Assembly (NCBI GenBank): GCA_963695855.1
Contig: CAVOHZ010000001.1
Coordinates: forward strand, 1 to 64,000
Direction of reading: 5' to 3'
Source: an uncultured Nitrososphaerales archaeon
GTDB taxonomy: Archaea; Thermoproteota; Nitrososphaeria; Nitrososphaerales; Nitrososphaeraceae
Length of the DNA: 64,000 nt
Position numbers and translations under genes: made by a program. Positions 2,927 to 48,063 of the stretch are shown piece after piece. How positions within the stretch are numbered: position 1 is the stretch's first letter; each line of letters begins with the position of its first letter. The notes below the pieces were generated by a model. The model was not told the origin of the DNA and ran no database searches. It saw nothing but the letters and a program-made list of their open reading frames with translations.

Positions 2927-3636
2927 ATCTTAATTTTGTTTTTATAGTATTAAAACATATATATAAAGTATAATTAGTGCCTAACAGACAAATAAATCCT
3001 GTTCGCCTTCCTCAAAAGTGCATCAATGACGGAATATAGAAAAATATATAGAGATTCTGTTCTGTTTGTTGTACCTCCCAGTATAGATTAAAATTTCATT
3101 TACTGAGAAAGGACTCAAAAACGAGTTCCTTGCAATAAATATTCCCAACTGTGAAGAGGGTAGGAAGGTGTATTCTCTGAATGTTAAGGTACACAACTAT
3201 ACAAAACAACATCGTTACATCAATGCTCACAGTATAGGTGAAATGTTATTTAGGAAAGTAAGAAGATTAAATATTTGTGAAAATAACAAGACGATCAAGC
3301 AGATAAAAAGTGTTACCCATGTTAAATGGTGAATCTGTTACCTCTCTATGGAAGTATAATATATAAGCAATGAATTAACAAGATCAAGAAAGAAGAGAGA
3401 TACAATACATTAAAATAAAATGGAAATCAGTAACATAATTGTTATCATATAATTCATGATTCATAAAATATTGATCATATTTATTCTGTTGTAATGGGTG
3501 CCTTGTTGCACAACTTGTTCTTCTCAACACATTTAGCTAACCAATTCTAGTCATATTATGTGAACTGGAGAAATTACAACGAATCTCTTGTTAAACGTGG
3601 CGAGGTATTACTGGATTTTGATATTATAGATAACTG

Positions 3637-4651
3637 TGCCTTGTTGCACAACTTGTTCTTCCCAACACATTTAGCTAACCAATTCTAGTCATATTATGTG
3701 AACTGGAGAAATTACAACGAATCTCTTGTTAAACGTGGTGAGGTATTACTGGATTTTGATGTTATAGATAACTGGAATACTGAACTAGAGAAGATGAATA
3801 AGGAAAAGGAAGGTAGGAAATTCGTATATCCAGATTCATTTGTCAAGTTATTGGGATACATGAGAGCATACTTTCACTTACCCTACAGACAAACTGAAGG
3901 AGTAGTAAGAGAACATGCTTCAAACACTTTGCCATCAATTCCAGATTATAGTAACATTAGCAGAAGAATAAATAGACTGGATATCAAGATTTCTGATGAT
4001 ATAACCAAATCTAACTTGCATGATGATAATTTTGTTATTGCAATTGATTCTACCGGTATAAAGGTATCTAAGAGGGGTGAATGGATTAGACACAAGTGGA
4101 ATGTAAAAAGAGGATATCTAAAGATACATTTAGCAGTCGATATAAAAAAGAAGAGAATTCTATCATTAGATGTTACTAGTGAAGAAGTACATGATGTAAA
4201 AGTACTTCCAAAATTGGTTGATTATATAGCAATAAAACAGAATAAGGTAATAGATACTGCTATCATGGATGGTTCCTATGATAGCAACAAGATCTTTCAG
4301 TTTCTATCATTTAAAGGCATACAACCAGCAATAAAGGTAAGAAAGAATTCTAGATGCAAAAAGACCAATCATTACCTTAGAAACAAGATGGTGAAAATGC
4401 AGAAGAATGATTTGCAAGAATGGAAAGATAGTGATACGCTATGGACAAAGATGGATGGTAGAATCTGTTTTTTCCTCTATGAAGAGAATGTTTGGTGAAT
4501 ATGTTACTGCTATCAGGTTAGAGAACATGATAAGAGAGATAATGTTGAAAGCATCATTGTATAACTGGTTTCAAAGTATAACTGTTACATAATTATCAAT
4601 CAATTATATAATAATGAGAACGATTGGTTAAACGAGTTATGCAACAAACCA
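3637..4651 (+). mobile_element. IS5-family insertion sequence (inner nested copy)
   Basis: Same TIRs; 8-bp target duplication GATAACTG at 3629-3636 and 4652-4659; sequence nearly identical to the outer copy. Confidence 0.92.
3698..4592 (+). pseudogene. IS5 transposase, frameshifted near the C-terminus (inner copy)
   Basis: ORFs 3698-4498 and 4407-4592; one extra A (GATAGTGATACG versus GATAGTGTACG in the outer copy). Confidence 0.85.
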
Positions 4652-4678
4652 GATAACTGGAATACTGAACTAGAGAAG

Positions 4679-5479
4679 ATGAATAAGGAAAAGGAAGGTA
4701 GGAAATTCGTATATCCAGATTCATTTGTCAAGTTATTGGGATACATGAGAGCATACTTTCACTTACCCTACAGACAAACTGAAGGAGTAGTAAGAGAACA
4801 TGCTTCAAACACTTTGCCATCAATTCCAGATTATAGTAACATTAGCAGAAGAATAAATAGACTGGATATCAAGATTTCTGATGATATAACCAAATCTAAC
4901 TTGCATGATGATAATTTTGTTATTGCAATTGATTCTACCGGTATAAAGGTATCTAAGAGGGGTGAATGGATTAGACACAAGTGGAATGTAAAAAGAGGAT
5001 ATCTAAAGATACATTTAGCAGTCGATATAAAAAAGAAGAGAATTCTATCATTAGATGTTACTAGTGAAGAAGTACATGATGTAAAAGTACTTCCAAAATT
5101 GGTTGATTATATAGCAATAAAACAGAATAAGGTAATAGATACTGCTATCATGGATGGTTCCTATGATAGCAACAAGATCTTTCAGTTTCTATCATTTAAA
5201 GGCATACAACCAGCAATAAAGGTAAGAAAGAATTCTAGATGCAGAAACAAGACCAATCATTACCTTAGAAACAAGATGGTGAAAATGCAGAAGAATGATT
5301 TGCAAGAATGGAAAGATAGTGTACGCTATGGACAAAGATGGATGGTAGAATCTGTTTTTTCCTCTATGAAGAGAATGTTTGGTGAATATGTTACTGCTAT
5401 CAGGTTAGAGAACATGATAAGAGAGATAATGTTGAAAGCATCGTTGTATAACTGGTTTCAAAGTATAACTGTTACATAA
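4679..5479 (+). pseudogene. IS5 transposase, 3' part of the outer copy (5' end stranded at ~3560-3636)
   Basis: Intact DDE core, but N-terminal NWRNYNESLVKRGEVLLDFD codons lie upstream of the nested insertion. Confidence 0.85.
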
Positions 5480-5966
5480 TTATCAATTATATAATAATGA
5501 GAACGATTGGTTAAACGAGTTATGCAACAAACCAGTAATGGGAGGTTTTCTTATATTCATCTGTTATGCCATGATTTTTGAGATAAATATATAGAACTTA
5601 TTCATCATTACAGCAATATCCACAAGAATCTTGTTCGTTTCAGAAGTTTTCACAATTCGATCTGATTAAAGTACTTTGTTTCATTTTCTTGTTTTATTAC
5701 TCTTTGAATAAATAAACTTTTCAGGAAAAATATTGAAGAATCATAACTTAGAATGAAATGATATCCTTATCATAAAACATAGGGATTATTGCGATTATTT
5801 TAAGTAATAATAGCTGTGCATGAGTTAGAGTGAATTGATCGGAAGAAAAGCAATAATTCAACATACTTCTCTAAAATATATATCATGCTTACTCGCATAT
5901 TAAATTGATTCAATTTATAATTATCTTAATGACAATGAAAAATATTAGTAGTAGTCGACAAAAAAA

Positions 5967-8864
5967 TTAGGATGGATTTTGCTGTTCCTCTGTCAGTTTG
6001 GTTTTCCACTCCTCAGGGAGGTTTTGAACCCAACCATCGTAAACAATAGGTATAGGTAGTACACCCATTCCTCCTGTACCAGGCAATGCAGTAACTTTGT
6101 CGTCTACCTGAGTTTCTGGAGAACCTACTAGAACAATTCGTCCTGCTACTTTTGCGTCACTTGGATCACCGTCATTGTTGGGATCTCCATCAACTATTAC
6201 TAGGTCATTTGAAAATGAACTAGAGACATATGCATAATATCCCCCGTCTTTCTTTGCACCAAAGTTTACTCCATGACATCCTGCACTACATGCTAAATCT
6301 TTGACCAATTCATCGGTTTCTGTATCAATTATTGTTATTGTAGCACTTCCTGTGTTAGCTGTCACCATGTACTGTCCATCTGGGCTAACTGGAGTTTGTA
6401 TTGGTAGGAAACCAATCGGTCCACTAATGTTTCCGGAAATAGGATCATAATTCTCCAGTAAGTTTATTTTCTTGATCAATGTACCATTGACAGTATCTAC
6501 TACACTTACCGTACTATCAAAGAAGTCTGCAACATATGATTTGCTTCCATCTGGGGTCATTCCTACAGCAATAGGACTATGACCTGTCTTTACTTTTCCA
6601 ACAATTTTGTCTTCCATCATGTCGTATATCGTCGCAGTACCGGTAAACTCGTCAGGTGTTACCATGTAACGACCATCTCCACTCATCCAATGTCCATGTG
6701 GATGAGATGGATCTTGTCCAGGAAATTGCATCGGTATAACTTTTTTTATTGATTCGCCTTTTGGACCAAGTACAGCAACTCCTTGTTCTCCATGTAATAC
6801 TATCATAAGTTCATCTGTTTTTGTACTTGTCATTACATGTGATGGATCATCTCCTACCTCAATGTTTTTGACAAGTTTTCCAGTGCTTCTATCAAATATA
6901 GATGTCTTATTATCAAACCATTGTGTTGCATATATCAAATTTTGATCCCTATCTGTCCACATGTTATGAGCATTGTTCATATTTATCTCTGGCAGGGCAA
7001 CTTTTTTTGTTATCTCCCATGTAGTAGCATTGACTGCACTTGCAGTACCGGGTTTTGTCTTGCTTGCTGTCTTTTCAAATTGGGTATCTATCCAAACTTC
7101 TCCTATTCCAGGAATATCTGGATTATTTACCTTATCTAAGGTCAAATTCTGACCGTATCTGCTTTCTAGAGTATCCTTTAGGTTCACGACTGTTCCATTA
7201 GTTATCCTTACGTCTACGTCAGGGTAAGATATTTGCCACGGTTTAGATGATGATGAAGTATAGTCCTGCCAATTGTTTGTAGCAGTAATTGTAAAGAATG
7301 TCTTTAAGAGTCTTGTAGCAAGGTCGCTGCTTGTTGGTACTGTAATACCGTTTATCAACGTAATCTCATCTCCAAGATCTAAACCCTCGGTAGAAGGATC
7401 ATCGGCTATAACAGCACCTAACATAAACGGATGTAATTTACAACCAAATACATATAGTCCTGCCTTGTCAAGTTTTACTATGCCTCCACCTGCATATGCT
7501 GTAACCTCGTCAAACGGCATGTTCATGGCACCTTTGGGATAGACAAAACTCGTAACCGTATGCACACCACTTACATCTGACATCATGAAATTGACGCTGC
7601 CTGTTTTGTTAATAACTGCAAGAGATTTTGTTCCTGTATTTGTTATATCTCCTGCTAGATTAGTAAACCATTTAGCAGGCTGATCTGTCAGTTCAAAGGC
7701 TGCAAAGTTCTTGTATGGTGAAGCACCAGGTTCACTTGGTAAATTTATAGTTGGATCTCCTGATACAACTTTAAATCCTCCCATCATTCCAGCTTCCATA
7801 TGTGCAAATACATGACAATGATATTGCCACGGTCCTGGTCCCACTCCCTCTCCTACATCAATTACAAATGAATGAGTTTTACCTGGAAGTATCTGTTTTA
7901 CATCTATTATATTGTTTGTTCCAGGGTCTACCCATCTATGTGCATGAAGATGGAAAGTGTGTTGATGTCCTATTGGATTTCCTGCATGACCTACTGCTAA
8001 AACATGGAAATTTATTTTTTGTTCTACTACTCCAACTATACTGGGATTTGTCCACAATGGAATCTGTTTATAATTATTTTTATTATCAATTTCCATACCC
8101 CAAAATGTGGAGCCAACCATGAATAGGAGTACATCTTTATCTATCTTGTTAAGAGGTAATTCTTGAATCTCACCTTTTATCAGACCTGTAGTAACATTAT
8201 TCTTTGGATTCACAATTACTGCTCCAAATAGACCATTCTCTCCAGCTTTACTATCATCTACATATAGAAAAGTTCCTGGTTGAGATGCTAGAAATTCTTC
8301 ACTAGTTATAAGGTTGCCATCCTTGTCTTTAATATTTACCTTCACATAATCACCTTCATTAAAAACTAATGTTGGACCAGGAATAGTAGCCAATTTGCTG
8401 TATTTAGGCGTCAAATCTATGTTATTACTACTACTAGTAACATCAGATGAAGAAGCACCGTTGCTTTTAACATGGCTGATCATTTTATAAGCTGGTTGTC
8501 CAGTTGGTAAAGTTATAACTACCATCTCAATCTTGTGCATAGCATTATTGCTAGTTGTATTATTAGTTGATGACGAAGAGGTATTACCTTCAGATGATGA
8601 AGATATAGACGTTAAAGTGTGAAATACTTCTTTTTTGTCATCTTTTATTTTTTCATTATGTATTTTCAATGAGTCACTATTATCTTGTTTTGATATTTGT
8701 GATTGTTTTTGTTCTTGTTCTGCATAAGATATATCAATAGAAGAAAGATTTGCAGAGATAGGAGTAGTAACTATTACAACTGTTATAAGGGCAGTTAGGA
8801 AAGTCTTATAGGATATTGCAGCAGATTTAGAATTAAATTTTTTATTTGTATTTCTGATTATCAT
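5967..8864 (-). CDS. Exported multidomain copper protein: two-domain multicopper-oxidase module, extra plastocyanin-like domain and YVTN-type beta-propeller
   Basis: Likely start MIIRN at 8864 followed by a hydrophobic signal/TM segment. HQHTFHLHAHRW and WQYHCHVFAHMEAGM (T1 plus T2/T3 ligands); HTVTS...GCKLHPFM (second T1 site); repeated propeller blades such as VKTGHSPIAVGMTPDGSKSYVADFFDSTVSVVD. Confidence 0.88.
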   Translation of the reverse strand: MIIRNTNKKFNSKSAAISYKTFLTALITVVIVTTPISANLSSIDISYAEQEQKQSQISKQDNSDSLKIHNEKIKDDKKEVFHTLTSISSSSEGNTSSSSTNNTTSNNAMHKIEMVVITLPTGQPAYKMISHVKSNGASSSDVTSSSNNIDLTPKYSKLATIPGPTLVFNEGDYVKVNIKDKDGNLITSEEFLASQPGTFLYVDDSKAGENGLFGAVIVNPKNNVTTGLIKGEIQELPLNKIDKDVLLFMVGSTFWGMEIDNKNNYKQIPLWTNPSIVGVVEQKINFHVLAVGHAGNPIGHQHTFHLHAHRWVDPGTNNIIDVKQILPGKTHSFVIDVGEGVGPGPWQYHCHVFAHMEAGMMGGFKVVSGDPTINLPSEPGASPYKNFAAFELTDQPAKWFTNLAGDITNTGTKSLAVINKTGSVNFMMSDVSGVHTVTSFVYPKGAMNMPFDEVTAYAGGGIVKLDKAGLYVFGCKLHPFMLGAVIADDPSTEGLDLGDEITLINGITVPTSSDLATRLLKTFFTITATNNWQDYTSSSSKPWQISYPDVDVRITNGTVVNLKDTLESRYGQNLTLDKVNNPDIPGIGEVWIDTQFEKTASKTKPGTASAVNATTWEITKKVALPEINMNNAHNMWTDRDQNLIYATQWFDNKTSIFDRSTGKLVKNIEVGDDPSHVMTSTKTDELMIVLHGEQGVAVLGPKGESIKKVIPMQFPGQDPSHPHGHWMSGDGRYMVTPDEFTGTATIYDMMEDKIVGKVKTGHSPIAVGMTPDGSKSYVADFFDSTVSVVDTVNGTLIKKINLLENYDPISGNISGPIGFLPIQTPVSPDGQYMVTANTGSATITIIDTETDELVKDLACSAGCHGVNFGAKKDGGYYAYVSSSFSNDLVIVDGDPNNDGDPSDAKVAGRIVLVGSPETQVDDKVTALPGTGGMGVLPIPIVYDGWVQNLPEEWKTKLTEEQQNPS

Positions 8865-8868
8865 TGCC

Positions 8869-9987
8869 TTATTTACCTCCTCCAACAAATGATATTTCTC
8901 CATCATTATCGTTACCATTATCTTGTATCTCTGGTGATGCACCAGGAATACTGGAAATACTATTAGCAGCAGTATCATTGCCTGCAACTACTTCAAATTT
9001 TCCTTTCATACCCGAAAGTAAGTGTATAGGCATTTTATCATAATATGAAGTACTTTTATCAGCATTAATAGTAAATACATGGTTTTCTAGTGGTCCAATA
9101 TTCTTCGAACTGGTTGTTTTATTAGTGCCAGGTTTTAGCCATTCATAACCATCAAGAACAAAATGATGAAAATCGGTACCAACTGATTGAATATGGAATC
9201 TAACTAAATCATTTTTTGATGCCACTAGTGTAGGATTTACCCATAATGGTGTATGTTTTTTGTTACTTGTATTGTCTATCTCTACACCCCAAAATGCATC
9301 ATCGGTGATAAATAAAACAAAATCTTTCTTTATATCTTGTATATCTACCTCTTTAGGTATTCCATTTACCAAAGCATTTACTTTGCCATTGGCAGGATTA
9401 ACTATTACGGTAGAGAAGAGTCCATTAGTTTCTACACCATTCACATGTGTTCCAGATGGATTTTTTCCAAATGTGTGATCATGCCAAGGCCATGATCCTC
9501 TGGTTCCATCTGCAGCAGTCCATACATATGTATATGATTTTTGAGGAGTTGCTGCTTGATCTGTGATTTTATTTATCATTTTTAATGTACCATCACTTGT
9601 AATCTTATAATGAACGCCATGTGTATGAAGACTTACTGCTCCACGACCTATCTCATTAACTAACGTCAATCTTGCAGCATCACCTTCTGTCATGACTAAT
9701 GTGGGACCAGGTATTGTTGGTAGTTTACTGTATCTTGACGTAATATCTTGTGTCCGATTTTCTTCATCAATTATCTTGTATTCTAACATTTTATATGCTT
9801 GATGTCCATCTGGCAATTCTATCGCAGCCATCTTTATCTCATGAAGTTTATTAGAAAAATGAATATCTTCTCCTTGACTTTCTGGTTCTGCTAGGGCATA
9901 TTCTGTCAAATTTGCCAAATAAGATTGACTCAGACCTATCATTGAAATAATATAGGCTGTCAATAACAATCTTTGTGAATTTAACAT
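8869..9987 (-). CDS. Exported two-domain small-laccase-like protein with an intact domain-1 and a degenerate domain-2 copper motif set
   Basis: Signal peptide; IPGPTL, SLHTHGVHYKITSDGT, WPWHDH...NGLF. C-terminal domain lacks HxH and HCH. Confidence 0.88.
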   Translation of the reverse strand: MLNSQRLLLTAYIISMIGLSQSYLANLTEYALAEPESQGEDIHFSNKLHEIKMAAIELPDGHQAYKMLEYKIIDEENRTQDITSRYSKLPTIPGPTLVMTEGDAARLTLVNEIGRGAVSLHTHGVHYKITSDGTLKMINKITDQAATPQKSYTYVWTAADGTRGSWPWHDHTFGKNPSGTHVNGVETNGLFSTVIVNPANGKVNALVNGIPKEVDIQDIKKDFVLFITDDAFWGVEIDNTSNKKHTPLWVNPTLVASKNDLVRFHIQSVGTDFHHFVLDGYEWLKPGTNKTTSSKNIGPLENHVFTINADKSTSYYDKMPIHLLSGMKGKFEVVAGNDTAANSISSIPGASPEIQDNGNDNDGEISFVGGGK

Positions 9988-10540
9988 ATTTTATTAAATC
10001 TTAATTTAACGATAAACTATTTAATTTCTATGTTTCTTTTGTAATTAATTGTAATTATATGTTTACACGGTAATTATAGTATTCATTTCGTGAGTAAAAT
10101 CATTAGAGTACCAGCTAATTACCTAATCCTTCTTATTACCAGCTAGTTTGTAACATGATTTGTTGAGCAAAAGTCAAAAATAAATGCACTACCACACGTT
10201 AATTCAGTCTAAAATTTTAAATACGTGACCTATGTTACCATTCAAAGAATGGAGAAATCTTGACATAAGTTTCGCAAAAATGTATATGATAATAATGCCA
10301 ATTACAAATGCATATTCAACTGAAGAAAGAATAAAGGTAGTTTTCATTATAAAAGAACTATACTCACTAACAAAAATTCATTTAGATATTCTTTCCGATG
10401 AAAAATGTTTGATATCCTTGGAAGTTGATATTTTGCATGTTTACAGAATACAGGATATTTAGCTAGCCTCCATAGATAAATATCGGATTGATGTTGATAT
10501 ACAATGATAATTCAAACGAGGGAAATTAGTTTTCAGACTA

Positions 10541-11083
10541 TTATTTTTGAAATCTAAATGTTAATATAAATTCGGATATTTCTATATCTATTCGTTTATT
10601 AAATACTTTATTAAAAATTTGCTCTAAAATTTTTTTATGATATATCGACCAATTTAATCCCATATCATGTTTTAGGACACATTTAAACTGATCATCTTCT
10701 TGAGCACTATTAAACTCTACAAAAGATCTTTTCATTCTGTTTTCAAGCCATATTAAAAAGGAATCAGTGTCTAAACCCATTTTCATAAAAAAAGAAATGT
10801 CTTGAATGATATTCTTCCCAAAATTGGCCACTAAATAAGATATTTCATCTTCTGACATCAGATTAAATAAACTCCTTATTACTGAGTTGGCCATTGGTAT
10901 CATATCTATTTTAGGCTCATATCTATCCCATTCTGCATATCTTTTTAGGATTTTATTAATAAGGGCATTTAGTGTTATATCTTGAGTATCTGACTCTGTC
11001 TGTAGAGATGTAAAAGTTTCGTTATCTATTCTCAAAGTAAATGTACTTGTTTTTGTCTTAATTTGCGAAGAACGATCCGTCAT
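10541..11083 (-). CDS. Putative transcription regulator with an N-terminal ribbon-helix-helix
   Basis: STFTLRIDNETFTSLQTESDTQDITLNALINKILKRYAEWD; paralog of the next gene. Confidence 0.75.
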   Translation of the reverse strand: MTDRSSQIKTKTSTFTLRIDNETFTSLQTESDTQDITLNALINKILKRYAEWDRYEPKIDMIPMANSVIRSLFNLMSEDEISYLVANFGKNIIQDISFFMKMGLDTDSFLIWLENRMKRSFVEFNSAQEDDQFKCVLKHDMGLNWSIYHKKILEQIFNKVFNKRIDIEISEFILTFRFQK

Positions 11084-11175
11084 CTTAACGATACTACTCG
11101 CACAATAAAAGATAAATAATTAACCGTTATATAGATATTAGTACTATAATGCATAATCTAAACTATTACATAAAT

Positions 11176-11706
11176 TTATTCATAAAATTCAAATGAAATT
11201 AGTCGATTATTATATCTGATTTCCACTGGCTTTTTATAATTTTCTTTAGCAAGTAATTCAAAGATCTTTTTATGGTAAAGTGACCAATTCTCTCCCATAT
11301 TATGTTTTATTATGAAAGTATGTTTTTTATTGTCTTTTCTATCATTAATTTCAATGGATGTATTCTTCATTCTCTTTTCAAACCATCTCACAAATGATTC
11401 CCAATCATTCTTTTTATTCATAAATAAAGAAGCATCTTCTAGTTCATATCTCCCAACTTTAGTAGCTAACTCGACAACTTCTTCTTTAGTTCGACCGTCA
11501 AAAAGTTTCTCTAACAGAACTTTTGGAATCGGCATCATGCCTACTTTAGGTTCGTACACATCCCATTCAACATACCTTTTCAGAATTTTATTAATGAGAT
11601 TACTAGTAGTCAGTTGTTCTCTTTCTCCTTCCTTTCTAATTGTTTCTAAAATGTTATTTTCTATCCTAAACGTAATAGGTTTTGCTTTTTTTACTGCAGG
11701 TTTCAT
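11176..11706 (-). CDS. Putative transcription regulator with an N-terminal ribbon-helix-helix
   Basis: PITFRIENNILETIRKEGEREQLTTSNLINKILKRYVEWD; shares KHxMGxNWSxYHKKI with 10541-11083. Confidence 0.75.
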   Translation of the reverse strand: MKPAVKKAKPITFRIENNILETIRKEGEREQLTTSNLINKILKRYVEWDVYEPKVGMMPIPKVLLEKLFDGRTKEEVVELATKVGRYELEDASLFMNKKNDWESFVRWFEKRMKNTSIEINDRKDNKKHTFIIKHNMGENWSLYHKKIFELLAKENYKKPVEIRYNNRLISFEFYE

Positions 11707-11811
11707 AACATTATATAAAAATACTGCTTCTGTAATTTTAGAATTTCTTGTATCTTGATGAAGGTGATTCTGATTAAAAGATATATTTATAAACGGTTTT
11801 AAAGATGAACT

Positions 11812-12294
11812 TTGATGGATGATTACTCAATTAAAAATTTTTACAAGAAACATAAATATATAATTCTCTTTAACAAGAATATCTTTGTAGCAGCAATAAT
11901 AACTGCAATACTGGATATTTTCATAGTAAATCATGCTGCACTTGTATTTACTACAAATTATGTGTTGATATCATCAGTTTCTTTAGCAGCAGACTTCACA
12001 ATTTATAATACTTCATTTATAATTTTATATTTTATAGATAATAACGGTCGATCACAAAATTTTGATCGTAGAAAAAATATACAGAAATTAAGATACAGTT
12101 TTGGAAAAATAATTACTGTAATTGGGTTCGCAGAGATATCTTATCTTTTTGCTAAATTTCTTTCAACATATTTAATTTTCGAATTCGTTATCCTTGATGC
12201 TTTTATAATCTCAATAATTACAACGTTATTTGCTTGGATTTTTTATGTTATTATAGCAAATATCATGGCTAGAAGAAAAAAACTATTCAATTAA
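11812..12294 (+). CDS. Four-TM membrane protein (GtrA-like topology)
   Basis: Two pairs of hydrophobic helices in 160 aa. Confidence 0.65.
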   Translation: MMDDYSIKNFYKKHKYIILFNKNIFVAAIITAILDIFIVNHAALVFTTNYVLISSVSLAADFTIYNTSFIILYFIDNNGRSQNFDRRKNIQKLRYSFGKIITVIGFAEISYLFAKFLSTYLIFEFVILDAFIISIITTLFAWIFYVIIANIMARRKKLFN

Positions 12295-12487
12295 CCTAGC
12301 AATATGATTCACAAAATTCTATGCGAAGTGTATTGCCCTGAATTAGCAGAGTCGATTTAAAAATTTCTAAAAAATATAATGGATATAGAAACCTTCAAGC
12401 CAAAAAAAATAAGGTTGTTTACCAAGGGAATCAAAGAATCAATAAACAATTTAGATTATTTTTTCACTAAATCCGTCAGATCCATTT

Positions 12488-14480: not shown

Positions 14481-14963
14481 CTAAGCACAGACAAAATGTA
14501 ATATTGCAATATAGTTATCTTCCTTTTTTTCCCATCTAATCAATAATCGCCTGAATCTATTCATCCATGAGTGTGTTCTCTCAACTACCCATCCTCTTGC
14601 CCTATATTTTGGTATCCTTCTTCTTCTCTTCTTCTTTTTGTTCCCATTATTGTAGTCTCCCCCTCCTCTCTTGCAAACATGCATGGTATAACCATTTTCC
14701 TCAAGTAACTCGTATACTTCAGGATAGTCATACCCATTGTCAAGACAGATGTGTTGTTGTTGGGTATTGGTTGTAAATGATGATGATGGTCTGAAAACCA
14801 CTATACTCTGAAGAGTTGCTTTTGTCATCTTCATATCATGTCTGTTAGCACCATCTACAGTAATTTCAAGAGGAATGCTCTGACCATCTACAAGAAGGCT
14901 ACGTTTGGTACCTGATTTACTTCTTCTGTCGGTTGGGTTTGGTTCTGTACTTTTTTCCCCCAC
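14481..14963 (-). CDS. IS5 transposase orfB (outer element)
   Basis: PNPTDRRSKSGTKRSLLVDG, LDNGYD, WVVERTHSWMNRFRRL. Confidence 0.8.
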   Translation of the reverse strand: MGEKSTEPNPTDRRSKSGTKRSLLVDGQSIPLEITVDGANRHDMKMTKATLQSIVVFRPSSSFTTNTQQQHICLDNGYDYPEVYELLEENGYTMHVCKRGGGDYNNGNKKKKRRRRIPKYRARGWVVERTHSWMNRFRRLLIRWEKKEDNYIAILHFVCA

Positions 14964-15352
14964 GCGGTGCTTTTGTTATTACACCATCCATTGATTGCCA
15001 TTTCCAGTTGATACCAACTTTTTTATCATATATTTTTAGACCATCAATCCACATACGTTTGAATACGCCATCTTGTCTCCATTCCTGAAATCTGTCATGT
15101 ACAGTACTGGATGCACCAAGACTTCCTTGTGGTAGTGCTTTCCACTGACATCCAGTACGTGTTATGTAGAAGATAGCATTCATTGCCTTTCTATCATCCA
15201 TTCTTGGACGACCTGTCTTCTTCTTCTTTCTTTTGGGGTTATGTACAAGAGGAAAAATTTGATTCCATAATTCATCTGGTATTTCATTAGATGAATCAAT
15301 TCCAGAAATTTCAGATATCAGACTGATCTCGTGATATATAGTGGAGAGACAC
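14917..15352 (-). CDS. IS5 transposase orfA (outer element; 5' end cut by the nested IS)
   Basis: IPDELW, GRPRMDDR, RTGCQWKALP, STVHDRFQEW; slippery GGGGGAAAAAA in the orfA/orfB overlap. Confidence 0.75.
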
Positions 15353-15407
15353 TTAGAGCCTATCCCAAAAATAGATAGGAATATAGCTCGTTGGTTTCCT
15401 ATCATAT

Positions 15408-15788
15408 ATGATAATGTTTAAGAATAAAAAGTATGTTAGAACAATTATACGTATTCCAGACGATCTTTGGAATGAAATTAAAAATATTTTACCAGACGAG
15501 AAAGCAGAGAATACAATAGGCCGTCCAATTGTTCCTTATAGAAAAGTACTTGATGGCATCATGTTTATCCTGAGGACTGGATGTCAATGGAAAATGTTAC
15601 CCAAAGAATATGGTTCTGGTTCTACATGTCATAGAAGATTTCAAGAATGGAGAGAATCAGATATATTTGATAAATTATGGAGCAGACTGTTAAAAATATA
15701 CGATAACAAGAGAGGAATCAAATGGACATGGCAATCACTTGATAGCATATCTGTAAAATCACCTTTAGGGGGCGATGACCGGAAATAA
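15408..15788 (+). CDS. IS5 transposase orfA
   Basis: IPDDLW, LRTGCQWKMLP, STCHRRFQEW, SLDS; G6 run near the orfB overlap. Confidence 0.85.
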   Translation: MIMFKNKKYVRTIIRIPDDLWNEIKNILPDEKAENTIGRPIVPYRKVLDGIMFILRTGCQWKMLPKEYGSGSTCHRRFQEWRESDIFDKLWSRLLKIYDNKRGIKWTWQSLDSISVKSPLGGDDRK

Positions 15789-16269
15789 TCCTACTGATAG
15801 AAGTAAATTAGGGACGAAAAGACATATCCTAACAGATAAAGATGGTATTCCTCTATCTACTGTTATAACATCTGCAAATACTCACGATGTTACTGTTGCA
15901 ACAAATACAATTGATAATATTGTTATCAAAAGACCACCACCTTCATCATCAATAGCAAAATATAGAAATAAGAAGAAGAATAAGAAGAAGAAGCAGAATC
16001 TATGTCTTGATAAAGCATATCATTCCAAGGAAATAGAACAAGAAGTTATCAAAAGAGGATATATTCCACATATACGACACAGAAGAGAAGAAAAGAAATA
16101 CAGCAATAGACATCCTGCAGTAAGAAGATGGGTGGTAGAGAGAACAAATTCTTGGCATAACAGATTCAGAAAATTATTTACAAGGTATGAAAAGAAGGAG
16201 GAGAACTATCTTGGTCTTGTACAGTTAGCAAGTAGCATTATTGTTTACAGGAGGCTAATTTTGGGATAG
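15775..16269 (+). CDS. IS5 transposase orfB
   Basis: NPTDRSKLGTKRHILTD, LDKAY, RWVVERTNSWHNRFRKL. Confidence 0.85.
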   Translation: MTGNNPTDRSKLGTKRHILTDKDGIPLSTVITSANTHDVTVATNTIDNIVIKRPPPSSSIAKYRNKKKNKKKKQNLCLDKAYHSKEIEQEVIKRGYIPHIRHRREEKKYSNRHPAVRRWVVERTNSWHNRFRKLFTRYEKKEENYLGLVQLASSIIVYRRLILG

Positions 16270-16433
16270 GCTCTTAGCTTTGCCGAATAAATCTATTGTA
16301 ACATAAAGGTAAATACTATAAACTACTTTTGGGATCGGCTCTTATATATCCAAAGAAATCCCATTCCGTTTTTTTCCAAATACTCTTTGAATGGGGTTTC
16401 GCTTTCTTCATCTACACACCTATCATATAATAA

Positions 16434-16859
16434 CTATACAAATTGATGTGCATAAAAAAAAGGAATTTTTTTGGAAAGTAAATGGATTACAATTGGTATG
16501 AGACGCCTCATTCTGCGTCGTTCAGATGAACCAAATCGTTCTTGCTCATCTGGAATAATTTGAGGATATGAATCTGAATAAGGATTATTGTAATTATTTA
16601 ATGGATAATCAGAATCTGATGGTGGGGGTTCAAAACTAAAATTTCTTGGTTCTTTTTCATTATCTTCATAAAAATTTTTCTTATAATTACCCTTGTCATT
16701 GACATGACGGGTAATATCATCTATGCTCCTATTGTTTCCTGGATAAGGTTTATCTGTTACATGCAACTGAAGAATTTTATGGAAATCTTGTAGATGGCGA
16801 TTCAGACTCCATTGACGTGTAAAACTATGCTTACAAATTTTACAAATATACCTTTGCAT
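16434..16859 (-). CDS. C2H2 zinc-finger protein (possibly prematurely terminated)
   Basis: YICKICKHSFTRQWSLNRHLQDFH matches C-x2-C-x3-F-x5-L-x2-H-x4-H. Confidence 0.8.
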   Translation of the reverse strand: MQRYICKICKHSFTRQWSLNRHLQDFHKILQLHVTDKPYPGNNRSIDDITRHVNDKGNYKKNFYEDNEKEPRNFSFEPPPSDSDYPLNNYNNPYSDSYPQIIPDEQERFGSSERRRMRRLIPIVIHLLSKKIPFFYAHQFV

Positions 16860-16906
16860 ACTATAATTTGGTCTTTTAATCTAATAAAGAAAAAAAAGTT
16901 CTAACT

Positions 16907-16931
16907 ACACGTGTACACGTGTAACACGTGT
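16907..16931. promoter_or_regulatory. Triple palindromic ACACGTGT array, candidate operator
   Basis: ACACGTGT at 16907-16914, 16915-16922 and 16924-16931, about 50 bp upstream of the C2H2 gene. Confidence 0.45.
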
Positions 16932-17034
16932 CATGAAATCTCTGCCTTTTATTTTAAAGAGAAAAATAATAATGTCATGTATAATCACTTTCAATATATA
17001 CAGAAGAATAAGGTAGAAGATATAATAAAAATAA

Positions 17035-18036
17035 TAGTTTGTAGCATAATTTTTATCATTTTCTTCCAATTATTCTAACACATGCCAGGAAACAAATCAT
17101 GGCATCATTATAATGAATCTTTGATAGAATGTGGACGTGTTCTAATAGATTTAGATTTCATCAGATCATCCTATGAAGAAATCAAGAAGATGAATAAAGA
17201 CAAAGTGGGAGCACCATTCCAGTATTCTGATAATTACATGCAGTTTTTAGCATTCTTAAAGATTGGTTTCAAGATTTCATACCGTACTGTGCAGGGAATA
17301 GTACGTGGATTATCTGACTACGTAAGAATTGAAGAGATACACTTTACACATATCAGGAGACGAATCATCAAAATAAAACCATCTGTTGGGAATCTAGATT
17401 TTCAAGATGATGATCCTATAACACTTATTGTTAATGCATCAGGTTTGACAATATCAAAGAAAGGTGATTACATATAATACAAATGGTAACATGAAAAGAA
17501 AGAGTTTGTAAAATTACATATATCTGTAGACGAAAAGTCAAAGAAAGTAGTATCATTTAGGATAACTAAAGGAGATGTGCATGACACAAAAAAGTTTGGA
17601 CCTCTAGTACAGGAAGCAGCCAATAAATATGATATAGACAAAGTGTACGGAGACAAAGCATATGATAACAGAAATAACTTTAACATACTTCACAAGATTA
17701 ATGCAGAACCAGCAATAAAGATTAGAAAAAATGCGTTAGCAAGATCAAAAGGTTGTCCATTAAGAAGAGATGAGGTCCTACTTATCAGGAAATTAGGATA
17801 TAATGGATGGAAGGATTTGAAAGATGCAGCTAGAAGAGATGGATAGCTGAAATAGTATTTTCTGCAATCAAAAGAGTATTTGGAGAGGATCTCTTATCAA
17901 AAAAGTTTAGTGCACAGAAAATTGAGGCTGGTCTAAAGATTATGCTTTACAATAAATACATGGCATTGTAAACATAAACGAAACCAGATCAAACTGGGGC
18001 ATAAAAGTAAACAATAGTGAATTAAGTTACAGACTA
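17035..18036 (+). mobile_element. Degenerate IS5-family element related to the 3499 element
   Basis: Imperfect TIRs TAGTTTGTAGCATAATT / reverse complement TAGTCTGTAACTTAATT. Transposase fragments SWHHYNESLIECG, KLHISVD, YGDKAYD and WIAEIVFS broken by stops and a frameshift; no matching TSD seen. Confidence 0.85.
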
Positions 18037-18059: not shown

Positions 18060-19103
18060 GTGTATAAAGAATTATTGTCATATAAGAGTCTATTTCAGTC
18101 CCTTCTTGTCTTTATATTTATGATATTGATACTTTATCAGACAGCAGCAGGATTTTTTCAACAGGAACAGCGAAAAGAAATTTACGCTGTTGCTCAACAG
18201 GATAATAATAGTGGTAATAATTTTGTAGATAAAAAAGAAGCATTTAACCCTACCAAGAAAATAAAAATAGTTTTGGAAGATACTGAAATAGAAATAGCAC
18301 CAGGAAAGAAAATTAAAACGTGGGCTTTTAATGGCACAGTACCTGGACCTCCTTTGAGATTTACCGAAGGAGAAAACGTGAGCATTTTATTTGTAAATAA
18401 AGGATTGTATCCACACACTATGCACTTTCATGGAATACATGATGATAAAAATGATGGTGCATCGCCTTTTATAAATCCGGGAAAATCTTATACATATAAT
18501 TTAACTGCAGAACCTGCCGGTGCATTAATGTATCATTGTCATGTCCCCCCAGTTTCCGAACACATTAGAATGGGAATGTATGGAGCTTTAATTATCGATC
18601 CTAAAGATAAGCCATTAAAACCTGCTAAAGAGTATTACATGGTTTCAAGTGAATTTAGTACTGATGAAAAAAATGTTACCAAATTTCTAGCAGATTATTA
18701 TCCTATAAATGGATATGCTTATCAATATATGAGTCATCCGCTTGAAATAAACCAAGGGGATACACTCAGACTCTATATTGTTAATGAGGGAATTACTATA
18801 CCTGTCTCTATCCATTTACATAGCTCAATTTTTGATGTATATCCGTCAGGACTACTCTCCAACGAACCTTATCAAGCTCAGTCAATTGCTGTAGCTCCTG
18901 GCGATGCCACAATTGTAGAAGCAAAATGGAGATATCCTGGCAACTATATGTTCCATAGTCATGGATTACAAGAAGAACATGGAAATATGGGACATATAAT
19001 AGTCAAAGACAACGCTACCAAATTGACAAATAGTGTTTCAATGTTTGATTGGCAGTACAAGCTACAGAATGAATTACAGAAAGAAGAAATTACAGAAAAA
19101 TGA
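18060..19103 (+). CDS. Two-domain multicopper oxidase with the T1 site in domain 1 (type C-like)
   Basis: N-terminal TM; WAFNGTVPGP, HTMHFHG, YHCHVPPVSEHIRMGM; domain 2 HLHSS and MFHSHG. Confidence 0.88.
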   Translation: MYKELLSYKSLFQSLLVFIFMILILYQTAAGFFQQEQRKEIYAVAQQDNNSGNNFVDKKEAFNPTKKIKIVLEDTEIEIAPGKKIKTWAFNGTVPGPPLRFTEGENVSILFVNKGLYPHTMHFHGIHDDKNDGASPFINPGKSYTYNLTAEPAGALMYHCHVPPVSEHIRMGMYGALIIDPKDKPLKPAKEYYMVSSEFSTDEKNVTKFLADYYPINGYAYQYMSHPLEINQGDTLRLYIVNEGITIPVSIHLHSSIFDVYPSGLLSNEPYQAQSIAVAPGDATIVEAKWRYPGNYMFHSHGLQEEHGNMGHIIVKDNATKLTNSVSMFDWQYKLQNELQKEEITEK

Positions 19104-46879: not shown

Positions 46880-48063
46880 GAGGCCGGGTCATAATTATTC
46901 CATTTTCATAACGAATAAAGCTAGTTTATTGGTGTATGATGTTTTGGTGAAAAACTATCATTCAATCCAACAAACTAGCACAGAAAAGATCTACATCTAT
47001 TCTAATTAGTATTTTGTATTTGATTGGTTTGATTCGTTGGCCACATAATAATAATAATAATAGAGGAGGAGGAGGGCGTGGTAGACCATATGTCTATCCT
47101 CCTACTGTTATACTACGATGTTTTATAGTACGTGTATGGTTCCGATTGGATTCGAACAGAGCATTACATGAATACCTTGCAATGGACCTATCATATAACA
47201 GAAAGGTAATGAAGGGATGTGGACTATCCAGAATACCAAGCAGAAGAACATTTGATAGACGTCTTGCTACACTATCTATCTGATGATATCAAAAACAGGA
47301 TTACTACAATGGGTGAAGTTTTTGTTCATGAAAAAATAATCGATACATCTATCCTCTCAGCAGACAGTACCCTTATCAAGGCTAGAGGTTATGTCTGGCA
47401 CAAATCATCTATGGAAGAGGGAGTAGTACCACATTCTGGTATTGATATAGATGCAATGTGGGGATTCAGCCATACAAAGGAGGGTTGGATATTTGGATAC
47501 AAATTACATTTGATATCAAGTACTGGGTCTATCATTGTACCTTTGGCAGCAGATTTTACAACTGCTAACATACCTGACAATCAAATGTACAGTATATTGA
47601 CAGCAAGTCTACCTGTTACAATCATTAGAGAAATATTATTCATGTCTGCAGATCCTGGATACGATGATCATGAATTGTATGATCTCAGTACAGATATGGG
47701 ATTTAGATTGGTATGTCCAGTAAAGAGATATAAAAATACACATGCTGATAGGATAAAACTGATAGAATTTTATGAATCTAATGTTGGACAGGCTATCTAT
47801 TCCTTGAGAAGTATATCAATTGAACTGTTGATAGGGCATATCAAACCTGTGTTCAGGATAGATCCATTACCTGTCAGGGGATATGTCAAGAGTTGTGCAT
47901 CAGTATTATTGTCAGTACTGTTATACCAGATACTTGTCTATTATAACTGTAAAACTAACAAAAAGAATCCCAGAGCAATCAAATACATACTAGGAACATA
48001 ACGATTGACTATATGCTATTGTTAACATTACCATATTTATTTTATGAATTATGACCCAGTCTC
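46880..48063 (+). mobile_element. Insertion sequence with a DDE transposase (DDE_Tnp_1 type), frameshifted
   Basis: 17-bp TIRs GAGGCCGGGTCATAATT / reverse complement GAGACTGGGTCATAATT; 8-bp TSD AGTTATCT at 46872-46879 and 48064-48071; SADST, GYKLHL and ADPGYD motifs split over ORFs 47014-47283 and 47219-48001. Confidence 0.9.

Follow-up and report, generated by a model that had tools for sequence, protein, structure and literature searches.

We analysed a gene on the minus strand of a 64,000-nucleotide stretch of DNA (the window; contig CAVOHZ010000001.1, positions 1 to 64,000) from an uncultured Nitrososphaerales archaeon, whose product joins half of a two-domain multicopper oxidase (MCO) to a module made of a type 1 copper (T1) cupredoxin and a histidine-bearing β-propeller. 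With a probability of roughly 0.65, this is a copper-propeller redox module that usually has an O2-reducing MCO as its electron acceptor and serves an accessory rather than a core function. The reading placed on top of this architecture, an accessory O2-coupled oxidase that removes a nitrogen oxide, either NO or NH2OH/HNO, is our preferred but tentative one, at somewhat less than even odds. NO is the simplest and best guess at the substrate, because the module is found beside three different NO-stress elements and co-occurs with HAO. The gene, its parts and the gene upstream are as follows.

5967..8864, minus strand: fusion gene, 965 residues from the ATG at 8864, in the order leader, half of a two-domain MCO, T1 cupredoxin, insert and His propeller.
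8745..8864, minus strand: N-terminal basic and hydrophobic leader, in which the hydropathy of the protein, taken over 19 residues, is highest (1.85 at residue 23).
7761..8540, minus strand: two-domain MCO half (PF07731; alignment with intact methanotroph orthologs).
7395..7715, minus strand: amicyanin/plastocyanin-like T1 cupredoxin, with H61 (7562), C101 (7442), H104 (7433) and M107 (7424).
7131..7394, minus strand: conserved insert of helices and short strands between cupredoxin and propeller (from conservation and the structure model).
6033..7130, minus strand: seven-bladed YVTN/lactonase-like propeller, with H259 (6968), H302 (6839), H349 (6698), H351 (6692) and H490 (6275).
8869..9987, minus strand: upstream partner gene of 372 residues (P0002), the complementary MCO half, separated from the fusion gene by 4 bases.

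Residue numbers refer to the 591-residue C-terminal module of the fusion protein (P0003). The start at ATG 8864 was inferred; an alternative start given by the ORF (open reading frame) finder, TTG 8987, would overlap the upstream gene. Judged from its sequence, the leader is likely to be a signal peptide or membrane anchor and the fusion protein to be exported. The source genome carries archaeal amoA, showing that the host is an ammonia-oxidizing archaeon (AOA), and the closest relatives of the fusion protein are from Nitrososphaeraceae. The original prediction had assigned all of its motifs to one polypeptide, and they do lie in a single minus-strand open frame: GVHTVTS (7568–7548), GCKLHPFM (7445–7422), NNAHNMW (6977–6957), DPSHVM (6848–6831), LHGE (6797–6786), PSHPHGHW (6710–6687), GHSP (6584–6573) and AGCHGV (6284–6267).

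A plastocyanin-like domain with a complete His/Cys/His/Met set had also been proposed, and this was borne out. The T1 ligand set His...Cys-x2-His-x2-Met is complete within a cupredoxin fold, and H61, C101, H104 and M107 are kept in 141–142 of the 144–145 non-redundant relatives that cover them. The module profile matches amicyanin, pseudoazurin and the extra T1 domain of Nmar_1354 (9CCK; E 1e-4). In a structure model of the 591-residue module (predicted local distance difference test, pLDDT, 96.0; predicted template modelling score, pTM, 0.94), the C-terminal part is a seven-bladed propeller with 1L0Q as its best fold match (Z 38.6).

The conservation of the propeller histidines was determined among 161 relatives of less than 90% identity, a set that includes one fragment and one doubtful member and was accompanied by a check on 111 sequences. 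H259 (157/160), H302 (158/160), H349 (158/160) and H490 (159/161) were near-invariant and H351 was less strictly conserved (142/160), but the histidines of LHGE (H317, 13/160) and GHSP (H388, 22/160) were not conserved, and H347 was present in only 89/148. The claim that the blades carry histidines at equivalent positions was supported for the conserved cluster and failed for LHGE and GHSP. Only 37 of the 366 propeller positions were conserved at at least 95%, among them the four His, E223, N260, W275 and Q449; N256 and T273 reached the same level, and a C485/C489 pair is also present in the propeller. According to the strand list of the model, blades 1, 2, 3 and 6 (our blade numbering) each have one of the four histidines where their first strand begins, or close by. 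The suggested position on the propeller axis was supported to this extent, the hub placement having been read from the strand list and the NosZ alignment. On this model, the cluster is a candidate copper site. A shorter, distant subfamily (~400–500 residues; P0171, P0190, P0191, P0199, P0204 and similar) has the four histidines without H351 and most of the insert. For the homologue P0108, the nearest ESM Atlas clusters were automatically named 'copper oxidase' and lower ones belonged to the nos_propeller family, which we take as a lead only.

The MCO itself is divided between the two genes. On alignment with intact methanotroph orthologs, domain 1 of the fusion protein has lost its copper ligands, and domain 2 retains HQHTFHLHAH (7967–7938) and YHCHVFAHMEAGM (7823–7785), giving a complete T1 site (His, Cys, His and Met) and half of the trinuclear-site ligands. 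The partner gene retains the domain-1 ligands SLHTHGVH (9633–9610) and WPWHDH (9492–9475) and has lost those of domain 2. Because the ligands are split in this way, a functional trinuclear site would, by analogy with the small-laccase architecture, require both gene products. The self-contained redox chain on one polypeptide that had been envisaged therefore did not survive, as the upstream gene carries the trinuclear ligands missing from domain 1. Among solved structures, small laccases come nearest to the MCO part (E 7e-38). When motifs were counted in all the loci retrieved, some of them repeated, 33 rows had the fusion type, 20 the partner type, four an intact fused MCO and 35 an intact separate one, with five rows matching neither pattern. 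AlphaFold modelling of the whole mature chain (858 residues; pLDDT 94.5, pTM 0.92) suggests that the MCO half, the T1 cupredoxin and the propeller are packed as a fixed, rigid unit. Rhizosphere RNA contigs from four runs in two studies cover 5962–10119, with none in 5500–5961 or 10120–12400, and three of them bridge the junction of the two genes; they derive from close relatives of the source strain, and contigs alone cannot prove transcription or a single transcript. A second split pair is present in the source genome (contig C10, 517518–522910; L103, L081). Its fusion protein has 1,413 residues with a long Gln/Pro tail, and Tyr in place of H259 with a His two residues earlier.

Fold comparison of the propeller gave NosZ (2IWF; Z 30.6, rmsd (root-mean-square deviation) 2.8, 309 aligned), SBP56 (2ECE; Z 30.0, rmsd 3.5) and TcDH (Z 28.8–30.2). 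The suggested comparison with NosZ and methanethiol oxidase gave fold matches, but these ranked below those to metal-free propellers. The searches bore on the propeller only and returned generic propellers. As in NosZ and clade III L-NosZ, a seven-bladed propeller with histidines at the same kind of blade positions is combined with a cupredoxin domain for electron entry. In a profile alignment (probability 93), H349 pairs with the histidine of the NosZ PHG motif and the NosZ PLH histidine pairs with A392, although the forced propeller–NosZ alignment is reliable only around the PHG blade and the other pairings are of low confidence. However, three NosZ sequences had seven invariant propeller histidines plus the CuA ligands, against four invariant and one further histidine in the present family; the cupredoxin is a mononuclear N-terminal T1 domain instead of a binuclear C-terminal CuA domain, which is absent; and the NosZ enzyme is not linked to an O2-reducing MCO as here. 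The score for NF052460 (L-NosZ) was 57 bits against a cut-off of 700. The protein is not NosZ or L-NosZ. The His site is positioned like the NosZ/TcDH hub, yet it is not CuZ.

In TcDH, compared by fold only, substrate is oxidized at three copper ions in the tunnel of a seven-bladed propeller (PMC9456337), and the electrons leave to an outside carrier. This enzyme has no fused T1 domain or MCO and uses a cytochrome, and PDB searches gave no sequence match between TcDH and the fusion family. Pfam and NCBIfam scans likewise gave no match to SBP56/methanethiol oxidase. MCO4 (Nmar_1354; 9CCK) is similar in having a two-domain MCO with an appended T1 cupredoxin, the 'dangler', which the T1 domain of the module matches; in contrast, MCO4 is intact on one chain and ends after the dangler, without a propeller. 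Identity with MCO4 was ruled out by the split MCO, the propeller extension and the labelling of the ortholog as MCO3, and the MCO4 genes of N. franklandianus are at loci other than NFRAN_2029/NFRAN_2030 (PMC12448741). The closest solved relative of the MCO part is the Streptomyces small laccase, a type B two-domain MCO with its T1 site in domain 2, whereas here the ligands are divided over two genes and one half bears a 590-residue extension; the fusion chain lacks the trinuclear histidines in domain 1 of the same chain that characterize type B small laccases. Assignment of the gene of ammonia-oxidizing bacteria (AOB) as NE0315/mnxG was a guess that found no support, and a search on NE0563–0565 turned up no paper. 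Taken together, the protein would work like TcDH or an inverted NosZ, belongs to neither family, and is the published, uncharacterized MCO3.

The last point follows from the ortholog. The fusion protein is 65% identical (566/870) to P0077, i.e. WP_197731161.1 or NFRAN_2029, which a supplement labels MCO3 with a propeller arCOG, arCOG02562 (PMC12448741), and is itself a member of MCO3. The partner gene at 8869–9987 would be the counterpart of NFRAN_2030, because the gene order is the same. In that paper, transcription of NFRAN_2029 was 2,296 transcripts per million (TPM) in planktonic cells and 14,073 TPM in biofilm (rank 5; log2FC (log2 fold change) 3.2), that of its partner 1,514 and 9,353, and that of amoA 10,287 and 8,939 respectively (PMC12448741). 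Thus NFRAN_2029 was above amoA in N. franklandianus biofilm and below it in planktonic cells. The two genes are described there as two copies of MCO3, and the main text does not use the word 'propeller'; the roles proposed for MCO3 are surface modification or copper sequestration, nitrosative stress being mentioned for MCO4a, and MCO3 is reported absent from N. viennensis and N. maritimus (PMC12448741). Nothing on the complementary split of the ligands, on the His hub or on the range in bacteria appears in its passages and supplement rows on MCO3. In the literature on AOA MCO3/MCO4, L-NosZ, comammox, TcDH, NO oxidoreductase and methanotroph NsrR, subscription papers being outside our coverage, we found no description of the His propeller.

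The original prediction had called for a survey across nitrifiers, and strong enrichment was found in ammonia and methane oxidizers, with non-nitrifiers carrying the module too. It was detected in 34/301 Nitrososphaeria (34/278 near-complete genomes; 14/42 and 19/192 in the two main families), with at most four candidates scored per genome. Among Nitrosomonadaceae it was present in 104/151, and in 62/94 of the HAO-positive ones. For Nitrospiraceae (72/251), 62/93 amoB-positive genomes had it versus 10/158 amoB-negative ones; seven of these ten had HAO-level matches, two more had amoC and one had none, and no HAO-level match was detected in five control Nitrospiraceae without amoB and without the module. 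The Methylococcales, surveyed as the order of a pmoB-bearing genome, had it in 30/151, and among the 141 also searched for HAO it was in 22/52 HAO-positive versus 6/89 HAO-negative genomes. On this last comparison, the module goes together with the NO-producing HAO and is no substitute for it. Background Gammaproteobacteria (centre excluded) gave 2/250, one with pmoB and one without a detected copper monooxygenase, and the negatives include the unpublished G742. Across 185,579 species genomes, a motif scan yielded 427 confirmed stretches, and the best 79 loci of the 427 include Acidobacteria, Chloroflexi and Actinobacteria. Nitrosococcus, anammox bacteria and the alphaproteobacterial and verrucomicrobial methanotrophs were left out of these surveys. 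In a quick tree of 67 rows, which omits the window protein, L001 and L123, has L120 mis-trimmed and gives no donor or order of events in its deep branches, the non-nitrifier copies fell into one 41-row clade (SH-aLRT, Shimodaira–Hasegawa-like approximate likelihood ratio test, 99) with stand-alone nitrifier copies, and MCO3-linked copies fell outside it. A copy with 89% identity to the archaeal fusion is on a contig filed in a Chitinophagaceae metagenome-assembled genome (MAG; L006), probably through a binning error.

The MCO partner of the module occurs in four arrangements across four lineages. In soil AOA, and in the AOB loci read (6/6), it is split and fused, whereas in Nitrosopumilaceae (L104–L106) it is intact and fused to the module. 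In 28/30 Methylococcales loci the gene immediately upstream is an intact, separate one of the MCO3 type, complete in 27 and truncated by the contig end in one. In 4/6 comammox-type Nitrospiraceae loci read, an unrelated three-domain MCO is immediately upstream. NO-stress elements were found near several methanotroph operons. NorR is divergent from one of the 30 (L156; 672.8 bits against a cut-off of 476), and this locus has a sigma-54 box that matches exactly (1 in 10,000 shuffles) together with a GTCA-N3-TGAC palindrome. A divergent NsrR-like Rrf2 regulator with three Cys adjoins five of the 30, all related and of one lineage, and each of these has two ATGYAT-N5-ATRCAT boxes, which we take to be of the NsrR type, between regulator and MCO; such boxes could also serve the regulator gene itself. 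NnrS and qNor flank one further locus of the 30 (L157), which also has a SufR-like regulator, and one methanotroph locus is situated among nitrate and nitrite assimilation genes. A four-Cys SufR-like helix-turn-helix (Fe–S) regulator, scoring below its cut-off and in two cases recognized by eye, is divergent from the MCO–module operon at 13/30 loci (L148, L150, L154, L157–L159, L164–L167, L175, L178 and L179). Elsewhere, seven Ca. Angelobacter loci (L034, L041, L042, L048, L061–L063) have a haem-NO-binding (HNOB) gene next to the stand-alone module in tail-to-tail orientation, and flavohaemoglobin-like and globin genes adjoin one actinobacterial copy. The neighbours at Nitrosocosmicus-type loci are a ferredoxin, an ABM protein and a hemerythrin. 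Stand-alone Nitrosomonas and some Nitrospira copies recur with DUF5666 and DUF6502 (L051, L057, L060, L064, L069, L074, L076, L078; L071, L125).

We propose that the two gene products would assemble into an exported copper oxidase. One or two copper ions may be held at the propeller hub by H259, H302, H349 and H490 together with H351, E223, Q449 or N260, and this site would oxidize NO to nitrite or, less probably, act on hydroxylamine or nitroxyl. Electrons would pass from the propeller site to the T1 site of the module, then to the T1 site of MCO domain 2 and on to O2 at a trinuclear cluster formed at the interface between domain 1 of the partner and domain 2 of the fusion protein. Such an enzyme could act as an accessory, non-energy-conserving clean-up system where reactive nitrogen accumulates, for example in aggregates and biofilms. 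There are precedents for its parts. MCO4 Nmar_1354 converts NH2OH to HNO slowly, as a waste path, and its T1 dangler is 13.5 Å from the MCO T1 site (PMC11761707); TcDH provides the precedent for oxidation at a copper propeller, and ceruloplasmin, for which NO oxidase activity is recorded (PMC13746201), that for NO oxidation. As stated in PMC6478695, the NO oxidoreductase of nitrification is unknown and comammox bacteria lack ncyA; its product nitrosocyanin is the leading candidate for that enzyme. It is conceivable, although speculative and unlikely as a whole, that the T1 and His-propeller module, as an NO oxidase, adds a third type to the copper-propeller enzymes of the nitrogen cycle. With the MCO it would burn NO to nitrite; standing alone, as in Nitrosomonas, comammox Nitrospira and Nitrososphaera, it would feed the electron to respiration, sharing the NO oxidoreductase work, most of all in comammox bacteria without nitrosocyanin.

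Several points weigh against the removal of NO by a copper propeller. Metal binding, geometry and activity of the module are all predictions from sequence and model, and copper propellers were not singled out by fold score, metal-free ones reaching Z 32–39. No match was found in 32/94 HAO-positive Nitrosomonadaceae (among them the unpublished G372) or in 31/93 amoB-positive Nitrospiraceae. AmoB was found in 0/5 examined Acidobacteria, Chloroflexi and Actinobacteria genomes with stand-alone copies, and G737 has an MCO–module pair with neither AmoA/PmoA nor AmoB/PmoB found on searching. Related genomes are not independent, so that 2 × 2 tests overstate the associations; MAGs lose the multi-copy amo and hao genes, and the ratios are indicative. 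Explicit NO sensors are present at only 7/30 methanotroph loci, in about three independent events, and 13 loci have the SufR-like regulator. The NsrR-like proteins score below the NsrR cut-off and nearly as well for RirA; the NsrR-type box was absent upstream of the six AOB and four Nitrospiraceae loci searched; and the neighbours in the window, insertion sequences and two small regulators, give no NO clue. Finally, every enriched lineage also uses a copper monooxygenase, which fits copper handling equally well.

Copper capture is the first alternative, though an unlikely one: the propeller would bind Cu(I), and the T1–MCO chain would oxidize it to Cu(II) to allow uptake or detoxification, in support of the copper demand of AMO or pMMO. 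Besides the shared copper monooxygenases, it draws on the induction of AOA MCO4 by copper limitation, for which Cu(I) oxidation has been proposed (PMC7785015), and on the argument that biofilms limit copper (PMC12448741). A heavy-metal ATPase adjoins one copy (L030), and a tyrosinase and a copper chaperone adjoin another (L062). However, no recurring cop genes were found among the 240 neighbour proteins scanned (~230 of 373 cluster representatives), and the N. viennensis copper-limitation motif was absent upstream of the pair (three matches elsewhere against 3.2 expected). Nor does copper capture predict control of the NorR/NsrR type or the tie to HAO within the pMMO-bearing Methylococcales.

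Oxidation of an organic or sulfur substrate (a thiol, a thiocyanate-like compound, a phenolic or a cell-surface glycan) in the manner of TcDH or methanethiol oxidase, perhaps to cross-link the biofilm matrix, comes second and is doubtful. TcDH and SBP56 are in the same fold class, small laccases are the nearest solved MCO relatives, stand-alone copies occur in soil heterotrophs, and surface modification has been proposed for MCO3 (PMC12448741). Against this, no conserved sulfur or aromatic pathway genes were found among the scanned neighbours, and the split between comammox and nitrite-oxidizing bacteria, the HAO tie and the NO-sensor neighbours would be left unexplained.

Work in the reductive direction, in which the propeller would reduce NO, N2O or nitrite with T1 electrons as NosZ does and the MCO link would be secondary, is improbable. 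The pairing of H349 with the PHG histidine, the weak L-NosZ profile match and the many copies that stand alone without an MCO speak for it, and NO reductases are common in NorR and NsrR regulons. However, the four to five histidines in place of seven, the absence of CuA and the distance from the L-NosZ cut-off are contrary to it, and a reductase fused to an O2-reducing trinuclear site would lose electrons to it. More improbable still is a metal-free propeller that serves for binding or adhesion and holds an ordinary laccase-like enzyme in place. The propeller is closest in fold to a surface-layer propeller and lactonases, and the same-genome paralog has Tyr for H259, but the four His, E223, N260, W275 and Q449 are among the few strictly conserved positions, and the T1 electron-transfer site, which calls for a redox partner, is retained in the stand-alone copies.

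The remaining suggestion, that this is the missing core copper hydroxylamine dehydrogenase of the archaea, is very improbable: a copper-only, probably exported protein that is highly transcribed in one AOA would suit the role, but its presence in only 34/301 Nitrososphaeria and the reported absence of MCO3 from N. viennensis and N. maritimus (PMC12448741) contradict it unless AOA use non-homologous enzymes lineage by lineage, and it is commonest in bacteria that already have HAO, with O2 coupling yielding no energy (PMC11761707).

A candidate family common to archaeal, betaproteobacterial and comammox ammonia oxidizers and to HAO-bearing methanotrophs, with a gene context that ties some members to NO sensing, would matter beyond this locus, since a remover of NO or NH2OH in these organisms affects the N2O yield from soils and treatment plants. 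Even with another substrate, a copper site in a hub of histidines, wired to a laccase split over two subunits, would, if true, be new bioinorganic chemistry. The methanotroph version consists of two soluble genes in culturable hosts and is cheap to test.

Around the gene pair, the window has nested tandem copies of an IS5-like transposase, one of them frameshifted, directly downstream of the fusion gene (3490–5540), and further transposase fragments at 14481–17477 and 47219–48001. Upstream of the pair, two small paralogous regulator genes stand in tandem (10541–11706), their products beginning like a ribbon-helix-helix protein, and a similar regulator gene is near the pair in loci L004, L012, L013 and L021. 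A separate two-domain MCO/NirK-like gene at 18060–19103 (PF07732 and PF07731) has a layout unrelated to that of the split pair.

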